Source: Candidatus Uhrbacteria bacterium RIFOXYB2_FULL_45_11 (lineage in GTDB: Bacteria > Patescibacteriota > Patescibacteriia > UBA9934 > GWF2-40-263). From it: a stretch of 32,364 bases of DNA. A program made the translations under genes and the position numbers. The notes below the pieces were generated by a model. It did no database searches and had not been told where the DNA came from. It saw only the letters and a program-made list of their open reading frames with translations. The stretch is from contig MGFD01000030.1 in assembly GCA_001791715.1 (NCBI GenBank), positions 9,246-41,609 of the forward strand, given 5' to 3'. Shown here piece after piece: positions 3,616-27,279 of the stretch (position 1 is the first letter of the stretch; every line of letters starts with the position of its first letter).

Positions 3616-3687
3616 GGAGAGTGTGAGATCGGAGGTCTCGCCCAACATCCCGCTTCGCGGTCTGTCCAAACCTTCGGTTTGGCGCCA
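3616..3687 (+). repeat. R2: copy 2 of the structured tRNA-like repeat
   Basis: Identical to R1 except for one A/G change and a 3-nt CTC indel. It ends in GCCA, and similarity to the R1 trailer continues to about 3710. Confidence 0.85.
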
Positions 3688-3729: not shown

Positions 3730-3814
3730 GGAGAGGGCGAGATTCGAACTCGCGGAAGCTATTAACTTCGACAGTTTTCAAGACTGTTGCCATCAACCAC
3801 TCGGCCACCTCTCC
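3726..3814 (-). tRNA. tRNA-Ser (anticodon UGA), long variable arm, CCA encoded
   Basis: Reverse complement: GGAGAGGTGGCCGAGTGGTTGATGGCAACAGTCTTGAAAACTGTCGAAGTTAATAGCTTCCGCGAGTTCGAATCTCGCCCTCTCCGCCA. Anticodon loop CTTGAAA. Confidence 0.9.
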
Positions 3815-5233: not shown

Positions 5234-7123
5234 ATGCAACTCGGACTACTCATGCTACTTGGAATTGTTTTCATTTTGGGGCCCGTCGCTGCGAATGTCG
5301 CTGGTCATCCCATGGGTGGGGTTCCGACGACACTTCTTGTTGGAACGGGTCTCATCTTGACTATCGTTTCCGCAGTTCTCGTCATAATCACAAAACTGTA
5401 CGTGAAGACCAAGGCAAACGAAGCCTTCGTTCGTACGGGTATGGGTGGCGTGAAGATTCTGCAGGATGGCGGCGCGATCGTGTTTCCGGTGATTCACGAG
5501 ATCGTCAAGATCACGCTCACTACCATTAAGCTTCAGGTCACGCGTCAGGGTGCAGATGCACTCATCACGCTCGACAAGCTTCGTGCAGATGTGGCAGCTG
5601 AATTCTTTGTTCGTGTGCAGCCCAACACGGAGAGTATCCAGGCTGCGGCGCGAAGTTTCGGTGCCAAAATGGATGATCTCGAATTTGTGACTCGGCTCGT
5701 TGAAGACAAGCTCATTTCCGCGCTGCGTACGGTTGCAGCAACGAAAACCCTTGAGGGTCTCAACACGGAACGCAATGCATTCATCGAGCAGGTAACGCTG
5801 ATCGTTGCGCCGGACTTGGCTCACAACGGCCTCACGCTCGAAACGGCCACGATCAGCAAGCTGGATCAGACGGATCCAAAGAACTTGCGCGATAACAACA
5901 TCTTCGACGCACAAGGGCTGAAGACGATTGCGGAAACGACACAAAAGGCAAAGACCGAGACGAACAATCTTGTTCGCGCCGGAGAGCTTGCGCGTACGCA
6001 GAAGGATGTGGAGACGCGTCAAGCAACGCTTGCACTCGAGCTCACGCAGAAGCAGGCGGAAGCAGATCAGGAAGCTTCTGTCGTTACGGTTCAGGCAGAG
6101 AAGCGGAGCGAGGGTCGTCGGAGGGCGATTGAAGCCGAGCGTCTGTCCGATCTTGCGGATGTGGAAAAGACCACGAACATCGAAGTTGCACAGCAGCAGC
6201 GCTCACAAGCAACGGAAGTTGCCGAGCGCGAGAAGCAGGCGGCTGTCGTTGTGGCGGAACAGAAGGTTGCAGTCGCCGAACGCGACAAGCAGTCTGCTGT
6301 TGCCGCCGCAGAACAGAAGCGTGCGTTGGCAGAAGCCCAGCGTGCGACAGCTGAAGCGGAACTCGAAAAGGCCAAGCAGTCGGTCACGACCGTTCAGGTC
6401 ACGTCCGAAGCGGAGCGAGCAGGTCGCAAACAAGTCATCGAAGCGACAGCTGCGGCAGAGAAGACGTATGTCACTGCGACCAAGCAGGCTGACGGTGATG
6501 CGTACAAGGTGCAGAAGGAAGCTGAAGGTCGCAAGGCGGCGGCAGCGGCAGATGCGGAAGCCATTCGCCAGAAGGCTGATGCGGAATCCGATGCGCAAAA
6601 GAAGAAGGCTGAAGGCGCTAAGGCTGAGCAGTCTGTTCCGGTCGATATCGCGTCGAAGCAAGTCGAAGTCGACAAGGCTCGCGGCATGATCCCCGTGGAC
6701 ATCGCTGCAAAGCAGGTCCTTGTGGACAAGGATCGCGTCGAGACCGTGCTCAAGCCCGAGCTCGAAGCGCGTGACAAGAACGGCAAGGCGGCGCAGGAAT
6801 TCGAACTCGCCAAGTTGCAAGTGACCAAGGAAGCCGAAGTCCGGATCGCGGCCGCGGGTGCTGTGGCTCAGGTTTACGGCAAGATCACGGCTACGGTCTA
6901 CGGTTCGCCCGAAGACGTTGCCAAGGTCGGCGCAGCTGTGGTCAGTGGTATCTCGAAGGCTACGGTCATCGAGAGTTTCATGGGCGAGGCTGGTCCGCTC
7001 ACCAAGGCTGGTCTTCAGGGTGCTCTCAAGTCCCTGCAGCACCTCGTCGACTCCGCGTCCGATCGTCTCAGTGGCGATGCGGCTGTGAAGTCCGGCGAAG
7101 CTCCCAAGGCCGACGAAAAGTAA
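5234..7123 (+). CDS. flotillin-family SPFH/band-7 protein (YqiK-like) with a long Ala/Glu/Lys-rich coiled-coil
   Basis: N-terminal TM, then KANEAFVRTGMGG..IVFPVIHE...LDKLRADV.. SPFH core, then a flotillin-type EA-rich repeat region. Confidence 0.85.
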   Translation: MQLGLLMLLGIVFILGPVAANVAGHPMGGVPTTLLVGTGLILTIVSAVLVIITKLYVKTKANEAFVRTGMGGVKILQDGGAIVFPVIHEIVKITLTTIKLQVTRQGADALITLDKLRADVAAEFFVRVQPNTESIQAAARSFGAKMDDLEFVTRLVEDKLISALRTVAATKTLEGLNTERNAFIEQVTLIVAPDLAHNGLTLETATISKLDQTDPKNLRDNNIFDAQGLKTIAETTQKAKTETNNLVRAGELARTQKDVETRQATLALELTQKQAEADQEASVVTVQAEKRSEGRRRAIEAERLSDLADVEKTTNIEVAQQQRSQATEVAEREKQAAVVVAEQKVAVAERDKQSAVAAAEQKRALAEAQRATAEAELEKAKQSVTTVQVTSEAERAGRKQVIEATAAAEKTYVTATKQADGDAYKVQKEAEGRKAAAAADAEAIRQKADAESDAQKKKAEGAKAEQSVPVDIASKQVEVDKARGMIPVDIAAKQVLVDKDRVETVLKPELEARDKNGKAAQEFELAKLQVTKEAEVRIAAAGAVAQVYGKITATVYGSPEDVAKVGAAVVSGISKATVIESFMGEAGPLTKAGLQGALKSLQHLVDSASDRLSGDAAVKSGEAPKADEK

Positions 7124-9428: not shown

Positions 9429-9506
9429 GTGTCATTCCGACCGACCAAAGGGAGCGGAGGAATCTCGCGTGTACGAGAGATCCCTCGGCTGCGCTCGGGA
9501 TGACAA
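9429..9506 (+). repeat. P1: GTCAT...ATGAC palindromic element directly upstream of the next start codon
   Basis: It shares tgtcat..., atctcgcgtKtacgWgagatccctcggctgcgct and cgggatgaca with 27163-27272. Outer arms gtcattccga / ctcgggatgac. Confidence 0.8.
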
Positions 9507-10687: not shown

Positions 10688-10764
10688 GCGCTCGTAGCTC
10701 AGCTGGATAGAGCATCAGCTTGCGGAGCTGAGGGTCGTAGGTTCAAATCCTGCCGGGCGCACCA
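10688..10764 (+). tRNA. tRNA-Arg (anticodon GCG), CCA encoded
   Basis: GCGCTCG TA GCTC AGCTGGATA GAGC A TCAGC TTGCGGA GCTGA GGGTC GTAGG TTCAAAT CCTGC CGGGCGC A CCA. A20, C35 and G36 fit Arg identity. Confidence 0.85.
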
Positions 10765-10772
10765 TAACAATT

Positions 10773-11102
10773 ATGGCTTGGGTATATATATTAAAAAGCG
10801 ATCTTGATGGTCGTTTTTATGTTGGAAGTACGACGGATATTGAGCGTAGAATTATTCAGCATGAACGAAATCAAACACCATCAACATATCGAATGCAGGC
10901 GCATAAACTGGTTTTCTCTCAAGAATATTCAACGCTTCGTGAAGCTCGAGAAATTGAGAGGCGACTTAAAAAACTGAAACGAAAAGATTATTTACAAAAG
11001 ATTATAAATGAGGGTTTGATTCGAATGCGACCTGGCGAGAGCCCCGACGCGCCGAATGATAAACTGTCGGCGGTCGGGGTCCCGACAATCGACAGTATTT
11101 AA
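10773..11102 (+). CDS. small GIY-YIG nuclease-domain protein
   Basis: MAWVYILKSDLDGRFYVGSTTDIERRIIQHE... The ATG lies only 8 nt after the tRNA-Arg CCA. The stop codon sits in the loop of a hairpin (arms at 11081-11094 and 11105-11119). Confidence 0.8.
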   Translation: MAWVYILKSDLDGRFYVGSTTDIERRIIQHERNQTPSTYRMQAHKLVFSQEYSTLREAREIERRLKKLKRKDYLQKIINEGLIRMRPGESPDAPNDKLSAVGVPTIDSI

Positions 11103-11120
11103 CGTGTCGATTCGTCGGGA

Positions 11121-11157
11121 CTGAGGGTCGTAGGTTCAAATCCTGCTGGGCGCACCA
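11121..11157 (+). repeat. duplicated 3' half of tRNA-Arg (direct repeat of 10728-10764)
   Basis: ctgagggtcgtaggttcaaatcctgcYgggcgcacca. 36 of 37 positions are identical to the 3' part of the intact tRNA. Confidence 0.9.
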
Positions 11158-11164
11158 CAAAAAA

Positions 11165-11189
11165 CTTGATCTTCACGATCGAGTTTTTT
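11165..11189 (+). terminator. terminator after the partial tRNA copy
   Basis: cttgatc-ttcac-gatcgag followed by T6. Confidence 0.55.
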
Positions 11190-11211
11190 GTTTTGCCCTC
11201 CCTCTGTTACC

Positions 11212-13371
11212 ATGTCTTCATCTATGTCTCTTCGACTCACAACGCCTGTTTCTGGACTTCCGGGAATAGGGGATAAAGCTGCGACCGATCTTGCCTCGAT
11301 TCATGTGAAAACCGTTCGGGATCTTTTGTGGTATGTGCCGTTTCGTTACGATGACTTTTCGAAGCGTGTACCGATTGCGAAGGCTCCAATCGATACTCCT
11401 GTGACGATTGATGCACGCATTAAGTCGATTGGGCTTCGTCCTTCAAGATCAAGTCGTGTGAAGATTGTGGATGCGGTGATTGAAGATGAGACGGGAGAGT
11501 TGAAAGTGATATGGTTCAATCAACTGTATTTGTTAAAGACGATGCTGGTTGGATCGAAACATTCCTTTGCAGGTTTGATCGACCATCGATTTGGAAAAAC
11601 GTTTTCGAATCCGATCCATGAACCTGTTGGACAGAATGTGAATACTGGTCGCATTGTTCCGGTGTATGGATTGACGGGCGGAATCACGATGCGCAAACTG
11701 CGTGACGCGATCAAACGCTCGCTTACGATTGTCGACACACTTCCAGATTGGTTGCCGAGCGAGATTGTCGCATCAAAAGAATTGCCAGCATTGTCAGCGG
11801 CACTTTCGAGCGTACACTTTCCAGAATCACACGAAGCCTTGCAGCGCGGAATAGATCGTCTCAAGTTCGACGAATTATTTTTGCATCAGATGTTGTTCGA
11901 AGAAGTACGCCGCGATCGCAAGACCAAGAATGCGACCGCGATCCCAATCGATGAGGCATCGATTAAAACGTTTGTTGCAACACTTCCGTTTACGCTTACG
12001 CGCGCGCAAAAAGTGGCGGCCTGGGAAATTGTTCAAGATCTCGCGAAGGATGTTCCGATGAATCGTTTGCTCGAGGGTGATGTTGGATCTGGAAAAACGG
12101 TCGTCGCCGCGATCGCCGCACACGCTGCGATGGAACCCCCTCTCCCTTTGGGGGAGAGGGATGGGGAGAGGGGTGTTTCGGTTGTGTACCTTGCGCCAAC
12201 GGAAATTCTCGCAACACAACAACACAAAGCGTTTTGTAAAATGATGCCTTCTCGAAACATTGCACTCCTCACACATAATCAAATTTTTTATAATGCGGAG
12301 AAAGTTAAACGCGCAGAGTTGATCGAGAAAATCTCGAGCGGCGCGGTCGACTGTTTGATCGGAACACATGCGGTTTTACAAGAGGGAATTGATGTTTCAA
12401 ATGCGTCGCTTGTGATTATCGACGAGCAACACAGATTCGGTGTTGCGCAACGTCATGCGCTTTTGCATCGTAACCCCTCTCCCCAACCCTCCCCCTCGCA
12501 GGGGAGGGAGTACGCGCCGCATTTACTTTCGATGACCGCAACGCCAATCCCTCGCTCGCTTGCGCTCACGATTTACGGTGACCTCGAACTTTCCATTCTC
12601 GACGAGCTTCCAAAAGGCCGCAAGCCCATCGGAACCGCAATGGTGCCGGTCGAGCAACGCGTTGGTATGTGGAAACATGTTCGGTCCGAGATTGAAAGCG
12701 GAAGACAAGCATTCGTGATTTGTCCGCTCATCGATCCATCCGATTCGCTTGGAAGCAAATCTGTGACAGAAGTTGAGAAAATGCTCACAGCCCTCTCTCC
12801 TCATCGAGGAGAGAGCGGGGAGAGAGGTGTTCTGAACGGTTTACGTGTCACAACGCTTCATGGAAAGTTGAAGTCGGACGAGAAACAAAAACGCAATGAG
12901 GATTTTCGTGACGGAAAGATCGACGTGCTTGTTTCCACAACTGTGGTCGAAGTCGGTGTCGACGTGCCGAATGCGACCGTCATGGTCATCATGAGCGCCG
13001 AGCGATTCGGCCTTGCACAGCTTCACCAGCTGCGAGGACGTGTCGGACGATCTGATCTGCAATCGTATTGCTACTTGTTGCCCGACGATTTGAATCCACA
13101 TTCGAACAATCGTTTGCAAGCCGTGGTCGAGTCGCAGAACGGATTTGAGCTTGCCGAGCGCGATCTTGAATTGCGCGGCGCCGGAAACGTCTTTGGGAAC
13201 GCCCAGTCCGGATTCCCAGACTTCCAGTTCGCAACGTCTGCGGACGTTCCGCTCATGAAACAAGCGCGCGATTGGTCGCAAAAACTTCTTCTCGAAAAAG
13301 ATTTCTTTGAGAAACATCCACTCGTGCGTGCGCGGATCGAAGAAGCACTCGAACAGATTCATTTGGAATAA
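11212..13371 (+). CDS. recG: ATP-dependent DNA helicase RecG
   Basis: GDVGSGKTVVA, DEQHRFGV, MTATPIPRSLA, TTVVEVGVDVPNAT and QLRGRVGR motifs. ATG 11212 was preferred over TTG 11188. Confidence 0.9.
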   Translation: MSSSMSLRLTTPVSGLPGIGDKAATDLASIHVKTVRDLLWYVPFRYDDFSKRVPIAKAPIDTPVTIDARIKSIGLRPSRSSRVKIVDAVIEDETGELKVIWFNQLYLLKTMLVGSKHSFAGLIDHRFGKTFSNPIHEPVGQNVNTGRIVPVYGLTGGITMRKLRDAIKRSLTIVDTLPDWLPSEIVASKELPALSAALSSVHFPESHEALQRGIDRLKFDELFLHQMLFEEVRRDRKTKNATAIPIDEASIKTFVATLPFTLTRAQKVAAWEIVQDLAKDVPMNRLLEGDVGSGKTVVAAIAAHAAMEPPLPLGERDGERGVSVVYLAPTEILATQQHKAFCKMMPSRNIALLTHNQIFYNAEKVKRAELIEKISSGAVDCLIGTHAVLQEGIDVSNASLVIIDEQHRFGVAQRHALLHRNPSPQPSPSQGREYAPHLLSMTATPIPRSLALTIYGDLELSILDELPKGRKPIGTAMVPVEQRVGMWKHVRSEIESGRQAFVICPLIDPSDSLGSKSVTEVEKMLTALSPHRGESGERGVLNGLRVTTLHGKLKSDEKQKRNEDFRDGKIDVLVSTTVVEVGVDVPNATVMVIMSAERFGLAQLHQLRGRVGRSDLQSYCYLLPDDLNPHSNNRLQAVVESQNGFELAERDLELRGAGNVFGNAQSGFPDFQFATSADVPLMKQARDWSQKLLLEKDFFEKHPLVRARIEEALEQIHLE
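12136..12175 (+). repeat. in-frame palindromic mini-element A within recG
   Basis: CCCCCTCTCCC-TTTGG-GGGAGAGGG-AT-GGGGAGAGGGGTG, translated as PPLPLGERDGERGV. Confidence 0.8.
12474..12510 (-). repeat. in-frame palindromic mini-element B within recG (reverse orientation)
   Basis: The reverse complement reads CTCCCTCCCC-TGCGAG-GGGGAGGG-TT-GGGGAGAGGGG. In the recG frame it is translated as NPSPQPSPSQGRE. Confidence 0.75.
12791..12829 (+). repeat. in-frame palindromic mini-element C within recG
   Basis: CCCTCTCTCCTC-ATC-GAGGAGAGAG-C-GGGGAGAGAGGTG, translated as SPHRGESGERGV. Confidence 0.8.
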
Positions 13372-14276: not shown

Positions 14277-15569
14277 TCAATAAGAGGAAAGCTCTTTAAC
14301 GCTCTTCATGGTCTTTGGTGTCACGGATTTCTCAATCCCAACACGCTTTGCCTCCGTCACGCGTTTTTCAACCGCCATCACGTTTCGAATCTCGCCACCG
14401 AGTCCGACTTCGCCGATGTAGACGATCGGCTCACTATCGATGCGATTCTTTGCTGCGCTCATAATCGCCGCGCACACCGCGAGATCAGACGCAGGCTCTT
14501 TTAGTTGCATGCCTCCGACGACGTTCACATACACATCCGATTCGCCAAGATGTAATCCGGCACGCTTCGAGAGGATCGCAATTAACATCTGCAATCGATT
14601 TTGATCCATGCCGTTCGCTCTTCGAACCGGCGTTCCATAAAAGGATTTCTCGACGAGCGCTTGAACTTCTACAAGAAAAATTCTCGAACCTTCGCGCACG
14701 GTCGCAATGACAGACCCAGGAACACTCACGCGTTCCGCAAGAAATCTTGCACTCGGATTCTCGACGGCCTTTAGTCCCTCGCTTGTCATCTCAAATACAC
14801 CAATTTCATCCGTCGCACCAAAACGATTTTTTGTTGCTTCGAGAATACGCAATTCATGTGAAGGTTCACCTGTAAGCGAGAGAACAGTGTCGACAAGGTG
14901 TTCGAGTGTCTTTGGTCCTGCGACGGATCCATCTTTTGTCACTTGGCCGACGAGGAGAAGGGAAATGCCTGTGCGCTTTGCGAGTTCAAGGAGGCAGGAC
15001 GTTGCGTATCGTACGAGCGTGGGCGATCCACTTTGTGCTTCGACGGCGTTTGAAAACATTGTTTGTACAGAATCCACAATCGCGAGTGTGGGCTTTTCTT
15101 TTTCGAGGGTTGCAACCAGTTCTTCAACGGAAACCATCTCAAGAAACTTGATGCGCGAGAGATCTGCGTTTAATCGATCGAAGCGAGACTTGAGCTGCAT
15201 TGCGGATTCCTCACCCGAAACATACAAAACATCATGCTTCGTTGAAGCGATCTTTGCCGCCATGCCTGCAACGAGCGTGGACTTTCCGATTCCAGGCTCG
15301 CCCGAAAGCAATGTGAGCGACCCCGTTACGATCCCTCCACCAAGGACGCGATCAAGTTCATGTTCACCGATGGAGAGGCGTACATGTTCGTCTTGTGCTT
15401 TGATATCTTTAAGCGATGTTGTTTCTTTTGGTTTTGCTTTTGATCCGCTTGCGCGTGTGGCAGGGGAGGGGTGTTCCGTTTCTTCTTTGATCGTGCCCCA
15501 ATGATCGCACGTCAAACATTTACCAGACCATTTCAGTGATTGTGCATCGCAGTGGGTACAATGGAACAT
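14277..15569 (-). CDS. radA: DNA repair protein RadA/Sms
   Basis: N-terminal CxxC..CxxC zinc finger (CTHCDAQSLKWSGKCLTCDHW), GEPGIGKST Walker A, KNRFG motif and a Lon-like C-terminal domain. Confidence 0.95.
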   Translation of the reverse strand: MFHCTHCDAQSLKWSGKCLTCDHWGTIKEETEHPSPATRASGSKAKPKETTSLKDIKAQDEHVRLSIGEHELDRVLGGGIVTGSLTLLSGEPGIGKSTLVAGMAAKIASTKHDVLYVSGEESAMQLKSRFDRLNADLSRIKFLEMVSVEELVATLEKEKPTLAIVDSVQTMFSNAVEAQSGSPTLVRYATSCLLELAKRTGISLLLVGQVTKDGSVAGPKTLEHLVDTVLSLTGEPSHELRILEATKNRFGATDEIGVFEMTSEGLKAVENPSARFLAERVSVPGSVIATVREGSRIFLVEVQALVEKSFYGTPVRRANGMDQNRLQMLIAILSKRAGLHLGESDVYVNVVGGMQLKEPASDLAVCAAIMSAAKNRIDSEPIVYIGEVGLGGEIRNVMAVEKRVTEAKRVGIEKSVTPKTMKSVKELSSY

Positions 15570-23951: not shown

Positions 23952-23967
23952 AAAGGTGGAAATATTG

Positions 23968-24070
23968 GTAGATACGGATTACAGATGAATACAGATAGGG
24001 ATGACGTATCTGAAAAACGTTTTTCGGAACCGAATATCTCCATCTGTATTCATCTGTAATCCGTATCTAC
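23968..24070 (-). repeat. intercistronic element H3: perfect 29-bp inverted repeat between htpX and clpC
   Basis: gtagatacggattacagatgaatacagat (23968-23996) pairs with its exact complement at 24042-24070. The 45-nt spacer holds the 14-nt palindrome gaaaaacgtttttc (24012-24025). Confidence 0.9.
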
Positions 24071-24076
24071 ACACGT

Positions 24077-24973
24077 TTACAAACCAGCTTTCTTTAATCT
24101 CGCGATACGTTCTTCGATTGGTGGATGAGTGCTGAACATCTGTTCAAACTTTTTTGTGACGTGTGGGTCGAATGGATTTGCGAGGAAGAGGTGGGCTGTT
24201 GCGTGGTTTGCTTTTGACATGGGTTGGTCTTGTACGCTGATTTTTTCGAGTGCGCGAATGAGTCCATCTGGATAACGTGTGAGCAAACATCCGGATGCGT
24301 CTGCGAGATATTCGCGTTGGCGTGAAACCGCGAGTTTGATAAGTTGGGCAAAAATAGGGGAGAGAATCGCAAGCACGATTCCAACGATCAGGATGATTCC
24401 CGCACTACTGTTGTTGTCATTGTCTCGAGAGCCGCGGCCAAAGAAAAACGATCGTGTCATCATGTCAGATAAAAGCAAGACGACTCCGACAAGAACAACC
24501 ACAATGGTCATGACGCGAATATCGTAATTTCCAATGTGTGAGAGTTCATGCGCAAGAACACCTTCCAATTCTTGTCGATCGAGCGCTTGAAGGAGTCCGG
24601 TTGTGACGGCGACCGACGCGTGTTTTGGATCTCGGCCTGTTGCAAAGGCGTTCATGGCAGAGTCTTGGATCACGTAAATTTTTGGGGTTGGGAGTCCGGC
24701 GGTAATCGCGAGATTCTCGACGAGTCGAAACAGTTCTGGGTTATCTTGTTTTTCGATCGGTTTTGCACCAGACGCGGCAAGCGCAACAGAATCACCTTGA
24801 AAATATCCAACAAGCGTCATGACGGTGGAAATAATCACGGCAAGAAAAATGCCAGAAAAGGCATCACCCATCCAAAGACCAAATGCATAGCCGAGCAAAA
24901 TAATCACGACCGAGAAGAGTGAGATCAGAAACCAGGTTTTGTATTTGTTCGCAGAGATTTGGTCGTAGAGCAT
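24077..24973 (-). CDS. htpX: zinc metalloprotease HtpX
   Basis: VLAHELSHIGN (HExxH), four TM segments and C-terminal STHPPIEERIARL. Confidence 0.9.
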   Translation of the reverse strand: MLYDQISANKYKTWFLISLFSVVIILLGYAFGLWMGDAFSGIFLAVIISTVMTLVGYFQGDSVALAASGAKPIEKQDNPELFRLVENLAITAGLPTPKIYVIQDSAMNAFATGRDPKHASVAVTTGLLQALDRQELEGVLAHELSHIGNYDIRVMTIVVVLVGVVLLLSDMMTRSFFFGRGSRDNDNNSSAGIILIVGIVLAILSPIFAQLIKLAVSRQREYLADASGCLLTRYPDGLIRALEKISVQDQPMSKANHATAHLFLANPFDPHVTKKFEQMFSTHPPIEERIARLKKAGL

Positions 24974-25081
24974 AGGGGGAAGTAGAAAGTAGAGAGTAGA
25001 AAGTAGAGAGGAGATAGAAACGTTTTTTAAAATAGCTGCACCAACTAAAACCTTTCTACTTTCTACTTTTCCCTTTCTACT
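24974..25081 (-). repeat. intercistronic element H4: GTAGARA heptamer arrays in inverted orientation, filling the lemA-htpX spacer
   Basis: cat|AGGGGGA|AGTAGAA|AGTAGAG|AGTAGAA|AGTAGAG|AGG. The 31-nt arms at 24981-25011 and 25051-25081 pair at 26 of 31 positions. The spacer contains GAAACGTTTTTT. Confidence 0.85.
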
Positions 25082-25084
25082 TTT

Positions 25085-25636: not shown

Positions 25637-25743
25637 AGGGGAATGTTGGAAAGGTTTGAAATGTCGGAAAGGTCGGAAAGGAAACGTTGTAAAAACGTTT
25701 TGGATTACCTTTCAAACATTTCAGACCTTTCCGACCTTTCAGA
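25637..25743 (-). repeat. leader element H5: four plus four inverted 9-nt units (TCGGAAAGG family), abutting the lemA ATG
   Basis: AGGGGAATG|TTGGAAAGG|TTTGAAATG|TCGGAAAGG|TCGGAAAGG, then a 26-nt spacer (AAACGTT-GTAAA-AACGTTT), then CCTTTCAAA|CATTTCAGA|CCTTTCCGA|CCTTTCAGA. Confidence 0.85.
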
Positions 25744-25760
25744 CTAAGTATTACGTTTAA

Positions 25761-25794: not shown

Positions 25795-27138
25795 ATGGAG
25801 ATACCAAAACACATTTTTCGTGCCTATGATATTCGCGGACTTCTCGCTGAAGTGACGCCTGATATTGCTCGCGTAGTCGGGATGGCGCTTGTTTCAAAAA
25901 CAGGGGCAAAAACCGTGATTGTCGGGCGCGATATGCGTGCAACGAGTCCAGAGCTTGAGCAAGCGGCGATCGAAGGAATTACGTCGATGGGCGCAAACGT
26001 CATCGCAATCGGACTTTGCAGTACATCGATGTTCAATTTTGCGGTTTCAAGCCAAGAACATATTGACGCTGGCATCATGATCACCGCCTCACACAACCCA
26101 CCAGAATTTAATGGAATGAAAATGGCACTCGCAAGCGGATTGCCGATTTCTGGTCTTGAGATTCTTGAAGAGGTGGAGCGTTCCCCCTCTCCTTTCGAAG
26201 GAGAGGGCAGGGGAGAGGTGTCCCATCAAGATATTCTTGGTGCTTACATCGACAAATGTCTCGCTGTCGAGAACTTACCCGATCTCTCTGGAACAAAACT
26301 CGTTATCGACTACGGAAACGGCATGGGAGCAATGTCGGTTCGTGAACTTTGTAAGCGTCTGAAGATCGAAGTGGTCGAACTTTATCCAGAACCAGATGCA
26401 CGTTTTCCAAACCATGAAGCGAATCCGGCAAAAGAAGAAACACTCGCGGATGTGAAAGCGGCTGTTGTTCGAGAAGGCGCAGATTTCGGAATCGCCCTCG
26501 ATGGCGATGCAGATCGTGTAGGGTTTATCGACAATGAAGGAGTTTCGTTGCGCGGTGATCTTACGCTCGCGCTTCTCGCGAAAGAGACGCTCTCGAGAAA
26601 ACCTGGATCAAAAGTTGTTGTCGCACCAAATCAAAGTTGGACCACGTTTGATTCGATCACAGAAAACGGTGGCGTTCCTCTTGAATGTCGTATTGGTCGC
26701 AAATTTGTCGTCGAGGCGGTGCAAAAACAAGGTGCGGTTCTTGGTGGGGAGGTTTCGAGCCATTTCTTCTTTGAAGAATTCCATGGGCTTGAAGCCGTCG
26801 ATCATGCGATCGTTCGCATCTTGTCGATCTGGAAACAATCCGGACAATCATTCGCCGATCTCGTGCGTCCATATCGCGCATATACAAATAGTGGCGAGGT
26901 GAATATTGAAGTGCACAATAAAGAACAGGTTCTGAGCAAGCTCGAACAGTATGCGGGGACAGCATCGAAAGTGAATAAGCTCGATGGAATTCGCTGTGAA
27001 TTTGATCGTGACTGGTGGTTTATTGTGCGACCATCGAATACGGAGCCATTACTTCGATTGATTGTGGAAGCAAAGACGCCGGAACTGATGGTACAGAAAC
27101 GCGACGAATTGGTTGCTTTGATTCAGACGAACGGGTAA
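25795..27138 (+). CDS. phosphomannomutase/phosphoglucomutase (alpha-D-phosphohexomutase)
   Basis: GIMITASHNPPEFNGMKM active-site loop, DGDADR metal loop, GGEVSSH sugar loop. 447 aa. Confidence 0.85.
   Translation: MEIPKHIFRAYDIRGLLAEVTPDIARVVGMALVSKTGAKTVIVGRDMRATSPELEQAAIEGITSMGANVIAIGLCSTSMFNFAVSSQEHIDAGIMITASHNPPEFNGMKMALASGLPISGLEILEEVERSPSPFEGEGRGEVSHQDILGAYIDKCLAVENLPDLSGTKLVIDYGNGMGAMSVRELCKRLKIEVVELYPEPDARFPNHEANPAKEETLADVKAAVVREGADFGIALDGDADRVGFIDNEGVSLRGDLTLALLAKETLSRKPGSKVVVAPNQSWTTFDSITENGGVPLECRIGRKFVVEAVQKQGAVLGGEVSSHFFFEEFHGLEAVDHAIVRILSIWKQSGQSFADLVRPYRAYTNSGEVNIEVHNKEQVLSKLEQYAGTASKVNKLDGIRCEFDRDWWFIVRPSNTEPLLRLIVEAKTPELMVQKRDELVALIQTNG
26183..26220 (+). repeat. in-frame palindromic mini-element D within the phosphohexomutase gene
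   Basis: CCCCCTCTCCTT-TCG-AAGGAGAGGG-C-AGGGGAGAGGTG, translated as SPSPFEGEGRGEV. Same architecture as the recG copies. Confidence 0.8.
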
Positions 27139-27162: not shown

Positions 27163-27272
27163 TGTCATCTTGAGCGACCGTTTTATGTCTAGTCGAAAGA
27201 TCTCGCGTTTACGTGAGATCCCTCGGCTGCGCTAAGAGGCTGCTTCGCAGTGCGCTCCGCTCGGGATGACAC
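27163..27272 (+). repeat. P2: GTCAT...ATGAC palindromic element directly upstream of tyrS
   Basis: It shares both ends and a 33-nt core with P1 and carries an extra 26-nt internal segment (aagaggctgcttcgcagtgcgctccg). It ends 8 nt before the tyrS ATG. Confidence 0.8.
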
Positions 27273-27279
27273 AAAATTT

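Follow-up and report, generated by a model that had tools for sequence, protein, structure and literature searches.

The element in the PMM/PGM gene and its copies in recG

The stretch of DNA analysed here (32.4 kb of Candidatus Uhrbacteria bacterium RIFOXYB2_FULL_45_11, contig MGFD01000030.1, called "the window" throughout) contains the gene of a phosphomannomutase/phosphoglucomutase (PMM/PGM) and, 13 kb away, recG; the top homologues of both proteins belong to Candidatus Uhrbacteria, of the Patescibacteria or candidate phyla radiation (CPR). Inside the PMM/PGM gene lies the element under study, "c4", and three further copies of it, "c1" to "c3", lie in recG. A palindromic mini-element at this place in PMM/PGM had been proposed by an earlier, sequence-only reading of the window; the analysis confirms it, as one copy of what is described below as a triplex motif (TM). 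All coordinates are collected in Table 1.

Table 1. Coordinates of the genes, the triplex-motif copies with their parts, and the DUF559 units of other loci
Feature	Position	Strand	Remarks
PMM/PGM host gene	25795-27138	+	447 aa; four PGM_PMM Pfam domains
c4, triplex-motif copy	26183-26221	+	CCCCCTCTCCTTTCGAAGGAGAGGGCAGGGGAGAGGTGT; hairpin and G-rich third arm
c4 arm 1, pyrimidine arm CCCTCTCCTT	26185-26194	+	pairs with 26198-26207 in minimum-free-energy and centroid folds
c4 first loop TCG	between arm 1 and arm 2	+	
c4 arm 2, purine arm AAGGAGAGGG	26198-26207	+	complement of arm 1
c4 second loop CAG	between arm 2 and arm 3	+	
c4 arm 3 GGGAGAGGT	26211-26219	+	mirror repeat of arm 2; read from sequence
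Replaced patch, PMM/PGM codons 128-144	26176-26226	+	codon alignment with L001, L002, L127-L130
recG host gene	11188-13371	+	Pfam RecG_wedge, DEAD, Helicase_C
c1, recG site 1	12136-12174	+	matches the TMECO consensus throughout; frame-0 reading PPLPLGERDGERG
c2, recG site 2	12474-12508	-	reverse orientation; read as PSPQPSPSQGRE
c3, recG site 3	12791-12830	+	CTCTCTCCTC variant; all three arms changed coordinately
TM-bracketed DUF559 unit	L024 2107-2653		
TM-bracketed DUF559 unit	L045 ~6600-7100		
TM-bracketed DUF559 unit	L021 900-1467		
TM-bracketed DUF559 unit	L055 5595-6025		

The 39 nt of c4 are built from three arms and two loops. Its stem is 10 bp long, closed by the first loop, and the third arm would add nine triads to it, of the types C-G*G, T-A*A, and T-A*T. 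The hairpin is calculated at -12.1 kcal/mol as DNA (z = -2.4) and at -22.8 kcal/mol as RNA; these ViennaRNA energies are for the hairpin only, triplexes being outside the ViennaRNA model, and in the same program G-quadruplex folding of the mRNA is no better than the hairpin. A search of the entire window against Rfam at gathering thresholds returns three tRNAs only, with no match at c4. Three independent assemblies of near-identical strains (L223, L224, and L225), whose PMM genes differ by 0-1 nt, carry an identical element, which is therefore not an assembly artefact.

The arm-loop-arm layout that c4 had been said to share with the recG copies is recovered by a three-arm finder, whose pattern is a pyrimidine arm and, across a loop, the purine arm complementary to it, followed by a third arm in mirror order. 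The finder returns c4 plus c1-c3 in the 32 kb window and nothing in shuffled sequence, one run adding a second reading of c3 on the opposite strand. With the ~6.3 kb beyond the window (in L223) this makes four copies in ~38.7 kb. The similarity between them lies far beyond that of shuffled sequence: c4 and c1 are 82% identical across 39 nt (repeat finder), the word CCCTCTCC occurs 7 times in the window against 0.42 expected (0/100 shuffles reach 7), and GGGGAGAGG, with at most one mismatch, 12 times against 2.56 expected. An origin from tRNA or tmRNA was considered and rejected, the CCCTCTCC match at 3730, within tRNA-Ser, being unrelated. In c1 the parts are CCCTCTCCC (12138-12146), the loop TTTGG, GGGAGAGGG, the loop ATG, and again GGGAGAGGG.

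The copies are translated in different ways: c1 in frame 0, c3 and c4 in frame +2, and c2 from the opposite strand, which makes three frames and two orientations, and in c1, c2, and c4 all six frames are free of stops. What is repeated is therefore a stretch of DNA rather than a motif of the protein. Both the proposed dispersed family and the view that this is no RecG-specific protein feature gain support from here, since the copies sit in unrelated genes, in different frames, and in one case reversed. The likeness between the peptides (Ser/Pro followed by Gly/Glu/Arg) is real as a resemblance, but it reflects base composition only, as frames and strands differ between copies. c4 itself is translated as (S)PSPFEGEGRGEV, residues ~130-142 (in-frame reading SPSPFEGEGRGEV). 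Reading such a motif in frame 0 yields the "PLLxKEGxG.." inserts seen in other Uhrbacteria proteins, which the DNA confirms for the insert at recG site 1 of locus L222 (protein P0128). Peptides of the kinds PSPxxGEGxGE, PLLxKEGxGEV, and PLSxxGRGxG should thus be annotated as repeat DNA and not as protein motifs. An intein or intron was also rejected: c4 spans only 13 codons, the region has no Rfam match, and Pfam domains flank it in one continuous frame.

Filled and empty sites in related genomes

PMM/PGM orthologues do not generally carry the segment. The closest ones (88-90% identical, 446 aa; P0002-P0007, L002, L127-L130) lack the element and have in its place an equally long native loop with the sequence KKCIVAGDV(Q/R)KG(T/N)V (KKCIVAGDVQKG), which is unrelated to it. 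The 13 residues of c4 had been suspected of forming an extra loop, and this they do not: over the replaced patch, 17 window codons stand for 16 native codons without DNA similarity, a net gain of one codon. The site lies between the Pfam domains PGM_PMM_I (6-120) and PGM_PMM_II (150-249), and in the AlphaFold2 model of the protein (mean predicted local distance difference test score, pLDDT, 94.8) residues 129-141 are coil between a helix (120-128) and a strand (142-144). Confidence is locally lower at this coil, which fits a loop tolerant of change. In recG, by comparison, the copies are net insertions (+13, +10, and +11 residues), none of them present in the nearest orthologues, and because of c1-c3 RecG is here ~40 residues longer than its typical orthologues (720 aa vs. 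~680 aa). No target-site duplication appears in the filled-versus-empty alignments of PMM/PGM and recG. A common target motif at the four empty sites was rejected as too weak, consisting of no more than a GAT codon near each junction.

In one relative, L001 (GCA_964558785.1), PMM/PGM carries this element too, at the corresponding position. Between L001 and the window 2/39 nt differ in the element and 19/63 in the immediate flanks (Fisher 0.002), while outside the element 230/1302 positions of the gene differ, 166/434 when third positions are counted; against the gene-wide rate, the conservation of the element has a binomial probability of 0.022. The sole change within an arm, A to T in arm 3, still gives an allowed triad. 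The low divergence of the element fits DNA-level constraint, homogenisation against other copies, or a separate entry into two lineages. We rejected the window and L001 as demonstrable sisters: they lie about as far from each other as from the genomes without a TM (16.7-17.7%), so that one gain and two gains are indistinguishable, and locally the flanks of the window PMM are nearer to the TM-less genomes than to L001. Two further proteins have inserts of their own: P0010 bears SPLLTKEGQGEV, and the PMM loop encoded at L138 10001-11371 is 9 residues longer (…GFASPSKLERSGVPAHSNG…; insert SPSKLERSGV), with no TM found in it by the three-arm finder.

The search for strict motifs took in ~250 kb of DNA from related Uhrbacteria, and a metagenome search with the PMM protein gave 11 loci. 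All the Uhrbacteria copies (12/12) are in frame inside genes, namely PMM/PGM, recG, and radA. The PMM/PGM loop is occupied in the window, in L001, and in L139, the last with an inverted pair of a different variant, tails outward; recG is occupied at sites 1-3 in the window, at sites 1 and 2 in L221, and at site 1 in L222. As the copy at recG site 2 is reversed in the window and forward in L221, these two are independent events. Among 120 PMM/PGM orthologues every internal insert of at least 6 residues falls in this single loop, and recG has several recurrent insertion sites. The copies are not all of one type: three of the four in the window are of the CTCTCC type, whereas the genome behind L139 and L222 has the CCCCTCC type in both PMM and recG, and genomes thus tend to carry their own variant. 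The recurrence in the same loops may come from targeting or from mere tolerance.

Some observations stand beside this pattern. Each radA of L221 (4304-4335) and L222 (6875-6907) contains one in-frame triplex motif; the radA-like open reading frame (ORF) in the window, 14277-15569, has none. The RecG proteins of Patescibacteria have further recurrent insertion sites after window RecG residues 348 and 377, one of the "PTPGVG" type and the other of the "TTPSPSLKRRGTG" or "NRGLEKSSSE" type, which may be other mini-elements.

It could be asked whether the element is kept for what it does in the mRNA or the protein, i.e., as a ribosome-slowing hairpin at a domain boundary or as a flexible Pro/Gly-rich linker. 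The PMM copy stands exactly between domains I and II, its conservation relative to L001 exceeds that of the flanks, the same loops are used repeatedly, and the RNA hairpins of the copies are strong (-17.7 to -27 kcal/mol). Yet the nearest relatives manage without the element, the peptides vary with frame and orientation, and c2 is reversed, so that in its mRNA the C-rich tail precedes the hairpin. The same motif is, moreover, intergenic in Escherichia coli, and the third arm covaries as expected for purine-motif triads, which are a property of DNA only according to the literature (see below). We regard such a role as quite improbable.

A known family of triplex motifs

By sequence and architecture, c4 is a member of a family that has been described under a series of names: BoxC, then PIT (potential intrastrand triplex) elements, and then TMECO, with the consensus CCCTCNCCC-N3-6-GGGNGAGGG-N3-GGGNGAGGG (Holder et al. 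2015, PMC4666352). As a single strand TMECO forms a stable purine-motif intrastrand triplex in vitro; the survey reported 262 proteobacterial genomes, and in E. coli K-12 the copies are "always located intergenically" (PMC4666352). The same E. coli motifs, again intergenic only, were found independently as G4-hairpins ("HPGQ") with a possible switch between G-quadruplex and hairpin (Kaplan/Doluca et al., 10.1101/032615). The family has thus been described three times under different names with neither function nor origin assigned to it, the question of its origin dating from the 1990s. c1 has the architecture exactly (a class II purine motif): stem CCCTCNCCC, a loop of 3-6 nt, the complement GGGNGAGGG, a 3-nt loop, and the mirror stem. 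In c4 the C-rich stem CCCTCTCCT matches the consensus at 8/9 positions, and the change is compensated in both remaining arms; that is, c4 departs at one position per arm, by which a C-G*G triad becomes T-A*T. Between c1 and the intergenic copies of E. coli, which are present in 3945/5426 complete genomes, the identity is 87%; an example lies between araA and araD (CCCCCTCGCCCCTTTGGGGGAGAGGGCCGGGGCGAGGGG).

Scanning a species-representative genome collection for the pattern of hairpin plus tail gave at least 120 loci with at least 143 copies. The matches listed include Pseudomonas, Xanthomonas, Enterobacter, Nostoc, Chloroflexi, Planctomycetes, Bacteroidota, Akkermansia, and Bifidobacterium, and no Uhrbacteria copy is among them. 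Solo motifs in frame, with the Pfam domains of the host protein on both sides, occur elsewhere in an IleRS (L068), an NAD-dependent DNA ligase LigA (L089), and a type I restriction HsdR (L049). The repeat family is therefore not new: it is known, and it is cross-phylum. In the literature searched, in-frame copies are not described. The copies here are in frame within essential genes of a bacterium whose genome is tiny, in contrast to those published for E. coli, which lie between genes, a location that we treat as descriptive of E. coli and not as defining for the triplex motif. What appears to be new, relative to the literature reached, is the occurrence of in-frame, loop-replacing, recurrent copies in a CPR genome, together with variants that partly differ from one genome to another and with the covariation of the three arms.

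This covariation can be followed at one position, as the scan pattern had left the eighth stem pair and the matching base of the third arm free. Among the distinct cross-phylum copies in the matches listed, those with C-G at stem position 8 have G as the third-arm base in 103/104 cases, and those with T-A have T (6) or A (1) in 7/7, never G (Fisher 2e-10, a value that is indicative only, the copies being phylogenetically non-independent); the next base, taken as a control, is patternless. The T-A*T end triad of c4 agrees with this rule. Matched differences from c4 in all three arms are found also in c3, with arms CTCTCTCCTC / GAGGAGAGAG / GAGAGAGGTG, and in recG of L222, with arms CCCCCTCCTT / AAGGAGGGGG / GGGGGAGG and a matched two-base difference among them. 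The copies are, in effect, a natural mutagenesis series that bears on whether a triplex-compatible fold is maintained. Coordinated change of the arms is what a triplex-compatible constraint would predict, and equally a copying mechanism in which a single arm serves as the source of all three. According to the literature, DNA but not RNA can form purine-motif triplexes, so DNA is indicated as the relevant molecule.

In a different account, the motifs arise by local, structure-driven mutation (template switching, quasi-palindrome correction, or GA-repeat slippage) plus selection on folding, and the copies are convergent instead of mobile. The core GGAGAGG is its own mirror image, so fold-back copying or slippage could change the arms coordinately; TMECO has been tied to local sequence instability (PMC4666352), with small deletions and mutated copies published; and the PMM/PGM element replaces sequence rather than adding to it. 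Template switching, however, gives inverted and not mirror repeats, and the third arm of c3 matches the mirror of its arm 2 at 9/10 positions and fits poorly as a direct repeat. Nor does the native loop DNA of L002 and L127 hold any resemblance from which a motif could grow. Two further facts speak against convergence: c4, c1, and the E. coli copies share 82-87% identity over 38-39 nt, bases next to the loops included, and inverted pairs of TMs flank a gene in several phyla. Convergence by local mutation is accordingly an unlikely explanation.

How the copies compare with BoxC/PIT/TMECO and with other short repeats can be set out briefly. With the former they share the sequence and the three-arm architecture, occurrence in more than one copy (here four in ~38.7 kb, in two genes 13 kb apart), inverted pairs (L139), and presence or absence between relatives. 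They differ in lying inside genes and in frame, in a CPR instead of a proteobacterial host, and in a third arm of the form GGGAGAGG(G/T), without the TGA of the common GGGTGAGGG form. Rickettsia palindromic elements likewise stand in frame in unrelated housekeeping genes, apparently compatible with fold and function, but they are ~100-150 bp long, code for a peptide that is conserved, and occur only in Rickettsia; the present element has 35-39 nt, several frames, a cross-phylum family, and a mirror third arm. Repetitive extragenic palindromes (REPs) and the REPINs made of them, which are mobilised by RAYT transposases, resemble it as short (20-40 nt) G/C-rich hairpins with species-specific variants, as singletons and as inverted pairs. 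Their head is GTAG or CGTC (PMC3733652), and the four copies contain neither of the two; REPs are also extragenic and without a mirror third arm, whereas the four copies here are intragenic. No RAYT gene was seen, though no search was aimed at one. Miniature inverted-repeat transposable elements are similar in their derivation, as non-autonomous elements, from a larger unit that bears terminal inverted repeats (TIRs), in their known intragenic in-frame fusions, and in a layout like TM-spacer-TM. The window copies, in contrast, are single arms and not TIR pairs, are without target-site duplication, and in PMM/PGM have replaced sequence.

Taken together, c4 is probably a solo copy of a family of intrastrand triplex motifs rich in G/C, i.e., a structure-defined DNA repeat that is selfish or neutral, and not a protein motif. 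A single DNA strand of the element can be expected to fold as a hairpin, a purine-motif triplex, or a G-quadruplex. Its persistence inside genes may be favoured in three ways: arms of GA/CT only would put no stop codon into any of the six frames, the peptide that they encode (Pro/Ser/Gly/Glu/Arg) would be a flexible coil, and copies are seen only in the few surface loops tolerant of change and with a net length divisible by three. For PMM/PGM, where the copy has taken the place of the variable loop at the boundary of domains I and II with a net gain of one codon, we infer the element to be neutral for the enzyme. Since there is no target-site duplication and the PMM/PGM patch was replaced, entry by break repair or gene conversion would be favoured over cut-and-paste transposition; this is our best estimate of how the element spreads. 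In any case the copies supply variation to protein loops in genomes that have hardly any intergenic space.

Several points weigh against this account. Published work on the E. coli copies reports no stable triplex in vivo and no promoter or terminator activity (not detected for TMECO in PMC4666352). The presence/absence polymorphism for which the sequence-only reading had asked exists between species-level relatives, but none was found at strain level. Neither the window nor the ~250 kb of loci from related Uhrbacteria yielded a copy in intergenic DNA; a preference for coding DNA was rejected, 12/12 in genes being not significant at ~90% coding density, but the same count does not speak positively for random insertion. 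A selected function or a targeted mechanism could lie behind the repeated use of the same loops and the conservation of the element beyond that of its flanks. Finally, a mobilising enzyme was found neither in the window nor in the related loci.

DUF559 genes between inverted motifs in other loci, and further features of the window

With respect to such an enzyme, the cross-phylum loci provide a lead. In this alternative there is a mobile unit composed of a TM, a DUF559 gene (Vsr-like, PD-(D/E)XK), and an inverted TM, and the element is one of its terminal repeats standing alone, or a footprint left by it. Inverted TM pairs (the classical BoxC pairs) would then be gene-less miniature derivatives, and solo TMs would result from homing-like break repair or gene conversion, with a patch replaced and no target duplicated. 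We hold this to be possible, without considering it the likelier case.

The evidence begins with the four full-length DUF559 genes in the loci selected for TMs, 4/4 of which are bracketed by inverted TMs with their G-rich tails inward (Table 1). In two of them TM-DUF559-TM stands in frame within an aminoacyl-tRNA synthetase, the MetRS of a betaproteobacterium (L024) and the LeuRS of a Cytophagales metagenome-assembled genome (L045), with Pfam DUF559 E-values of 1e-32 and 3e-34, respectively, and synthetase domains on both sides; L063 has only a short remnant of the DUF559 C-terminus, near a motif. In E. coli K-12 (fabI-ycjD, L126 7205-7423), the terminus of the DUF559 protein YcjD, ...RRSPSP*, lies within a TM-like hairpin, and 165 nt downstream of ycjD a perfect TMECO stands beside the remnant of another DUF559 3′ end, a short duplicate of that of ycjD. 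The bracketed loci had been selected for TMs, which limits what they say, but among 80 IMG/VR DUF559 loci fetched regardless of TMs, strict TMs are within 250 nt of the gene in 8/9 cases, and relaxed TM-like hairpins reach a 4.3-fold higher density close to it than elsewhere (50 in 61 kb vs. 32 in 169 kb). A terminus ...SP, the product of reading into a reversed motif, is present in 55/120 of the best DUF559 proteins, a count dominated by related clusters of Acinetobacter and E. coli. The literature classes DUF559 with Vsr and the homing endonuclease I-Bth0305I, and its titles and abstract openings that mention DUF559 show no apparent link to BoxC or TM.

The comparison with Vsr-like homing endonucleases (I-Bth0305I; the Vsr/DUF559/DUF2726 clade) holds in one respect, patch replacement without duplication being a product of homing or gene conversion. 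It fails in that their known members reside in introns or inteins that splice out, whereas the TM-DUF559-TM units remain in the protein, and in that the window copies have no accompanying endonuclease. There is no DUF559 gene in the window, the 6 kb beyond, or the ~250 kb of related Uhrbacteria DNA, nor any match of a DUF559 hidden Markov model built from five sequences in the window or the CPR loci; a protein-database search with the DUF559 profile is uninformative on CPR, E. coli and Acinetobacter dominating it. As no DUF559 lies between inverted TMs in the window, its copies could only be solo derivatives. In addition, the hrpB-mrcB alleles of E. coli show presence or absence of a TM pair only (the shorter alleles are ~100 nt shorter, the pair presumably absent) and never a DUF559-filled allele; in the matches listed a minority of TMs is near such a gene (4/120 loci); the association is seen in sequence alone; and Holder et al. 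(PMC4666352) found none between TMECO and known mobile elements.

In its widest form, then, the proposal would be that a cross-phylum selfish element, with a DUF559 endonuclease as its gene, has BoxC/PIT/TMECO as its terminal inverted repeats and, solo or paired, as its remnants. It would reside unspliced and in frame (MetRS, LeuRS), leave footprints of 35-39 nt that rewrite surface loops (PMM/PGM, recG), and be recognised through the three-arm fold as a single-stranded DNA structure. This we offer tentatively. Recognition of the fold by the DUF559 enzyme, if true, would explain the covariation of the third arm with the stem, and a true link to DUF559 would name a candidate enzyme and make the spread of BoxC directly testable in E. 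coli via ycjD.

The window has other features as well. Just upstream of recG (region 10688-11163), a GIY-YIG-like ORF of 109 aa (10773-11102) has tRNA-Arg(gcg) on one side and a direct repeat of the 3′ half of that tRNA on the other, the repeats being 48 nt long and 90% identical (10723-10770 and 11116-11163); the arrangement resembles a small nuclease cassette that has entered at the 3′ end of a tRNA. In L221 a GIY-YIG ORF (962-1201) is also directly upstream of recG. A 71-nt repeat, 97% identical between 2568-2638 and 3616-3686, is partly like the 3′ part of the neighbouring tRNA-Ser genes and has no ARAGORN or Rfam call. A second dispersed palindromic element, TGTCATTCCGA...ATCTCGCG-TGTAC-GAGAGATCCCTCGGCTGCGCTCGGGATGACA, is intergenic and occurs at 9431-9506 and at 27165-27273, the latter copy directly after the PMM/PGM stop codon and with an internal insertion. 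Finally, long imperfect inverted repeats with arms of 26-46 nt (84-88% complementary) are found between genes at three places upstream of the PMM/PGM gene cluster, 23957-24081, 24980-25083, and 25642-25744.

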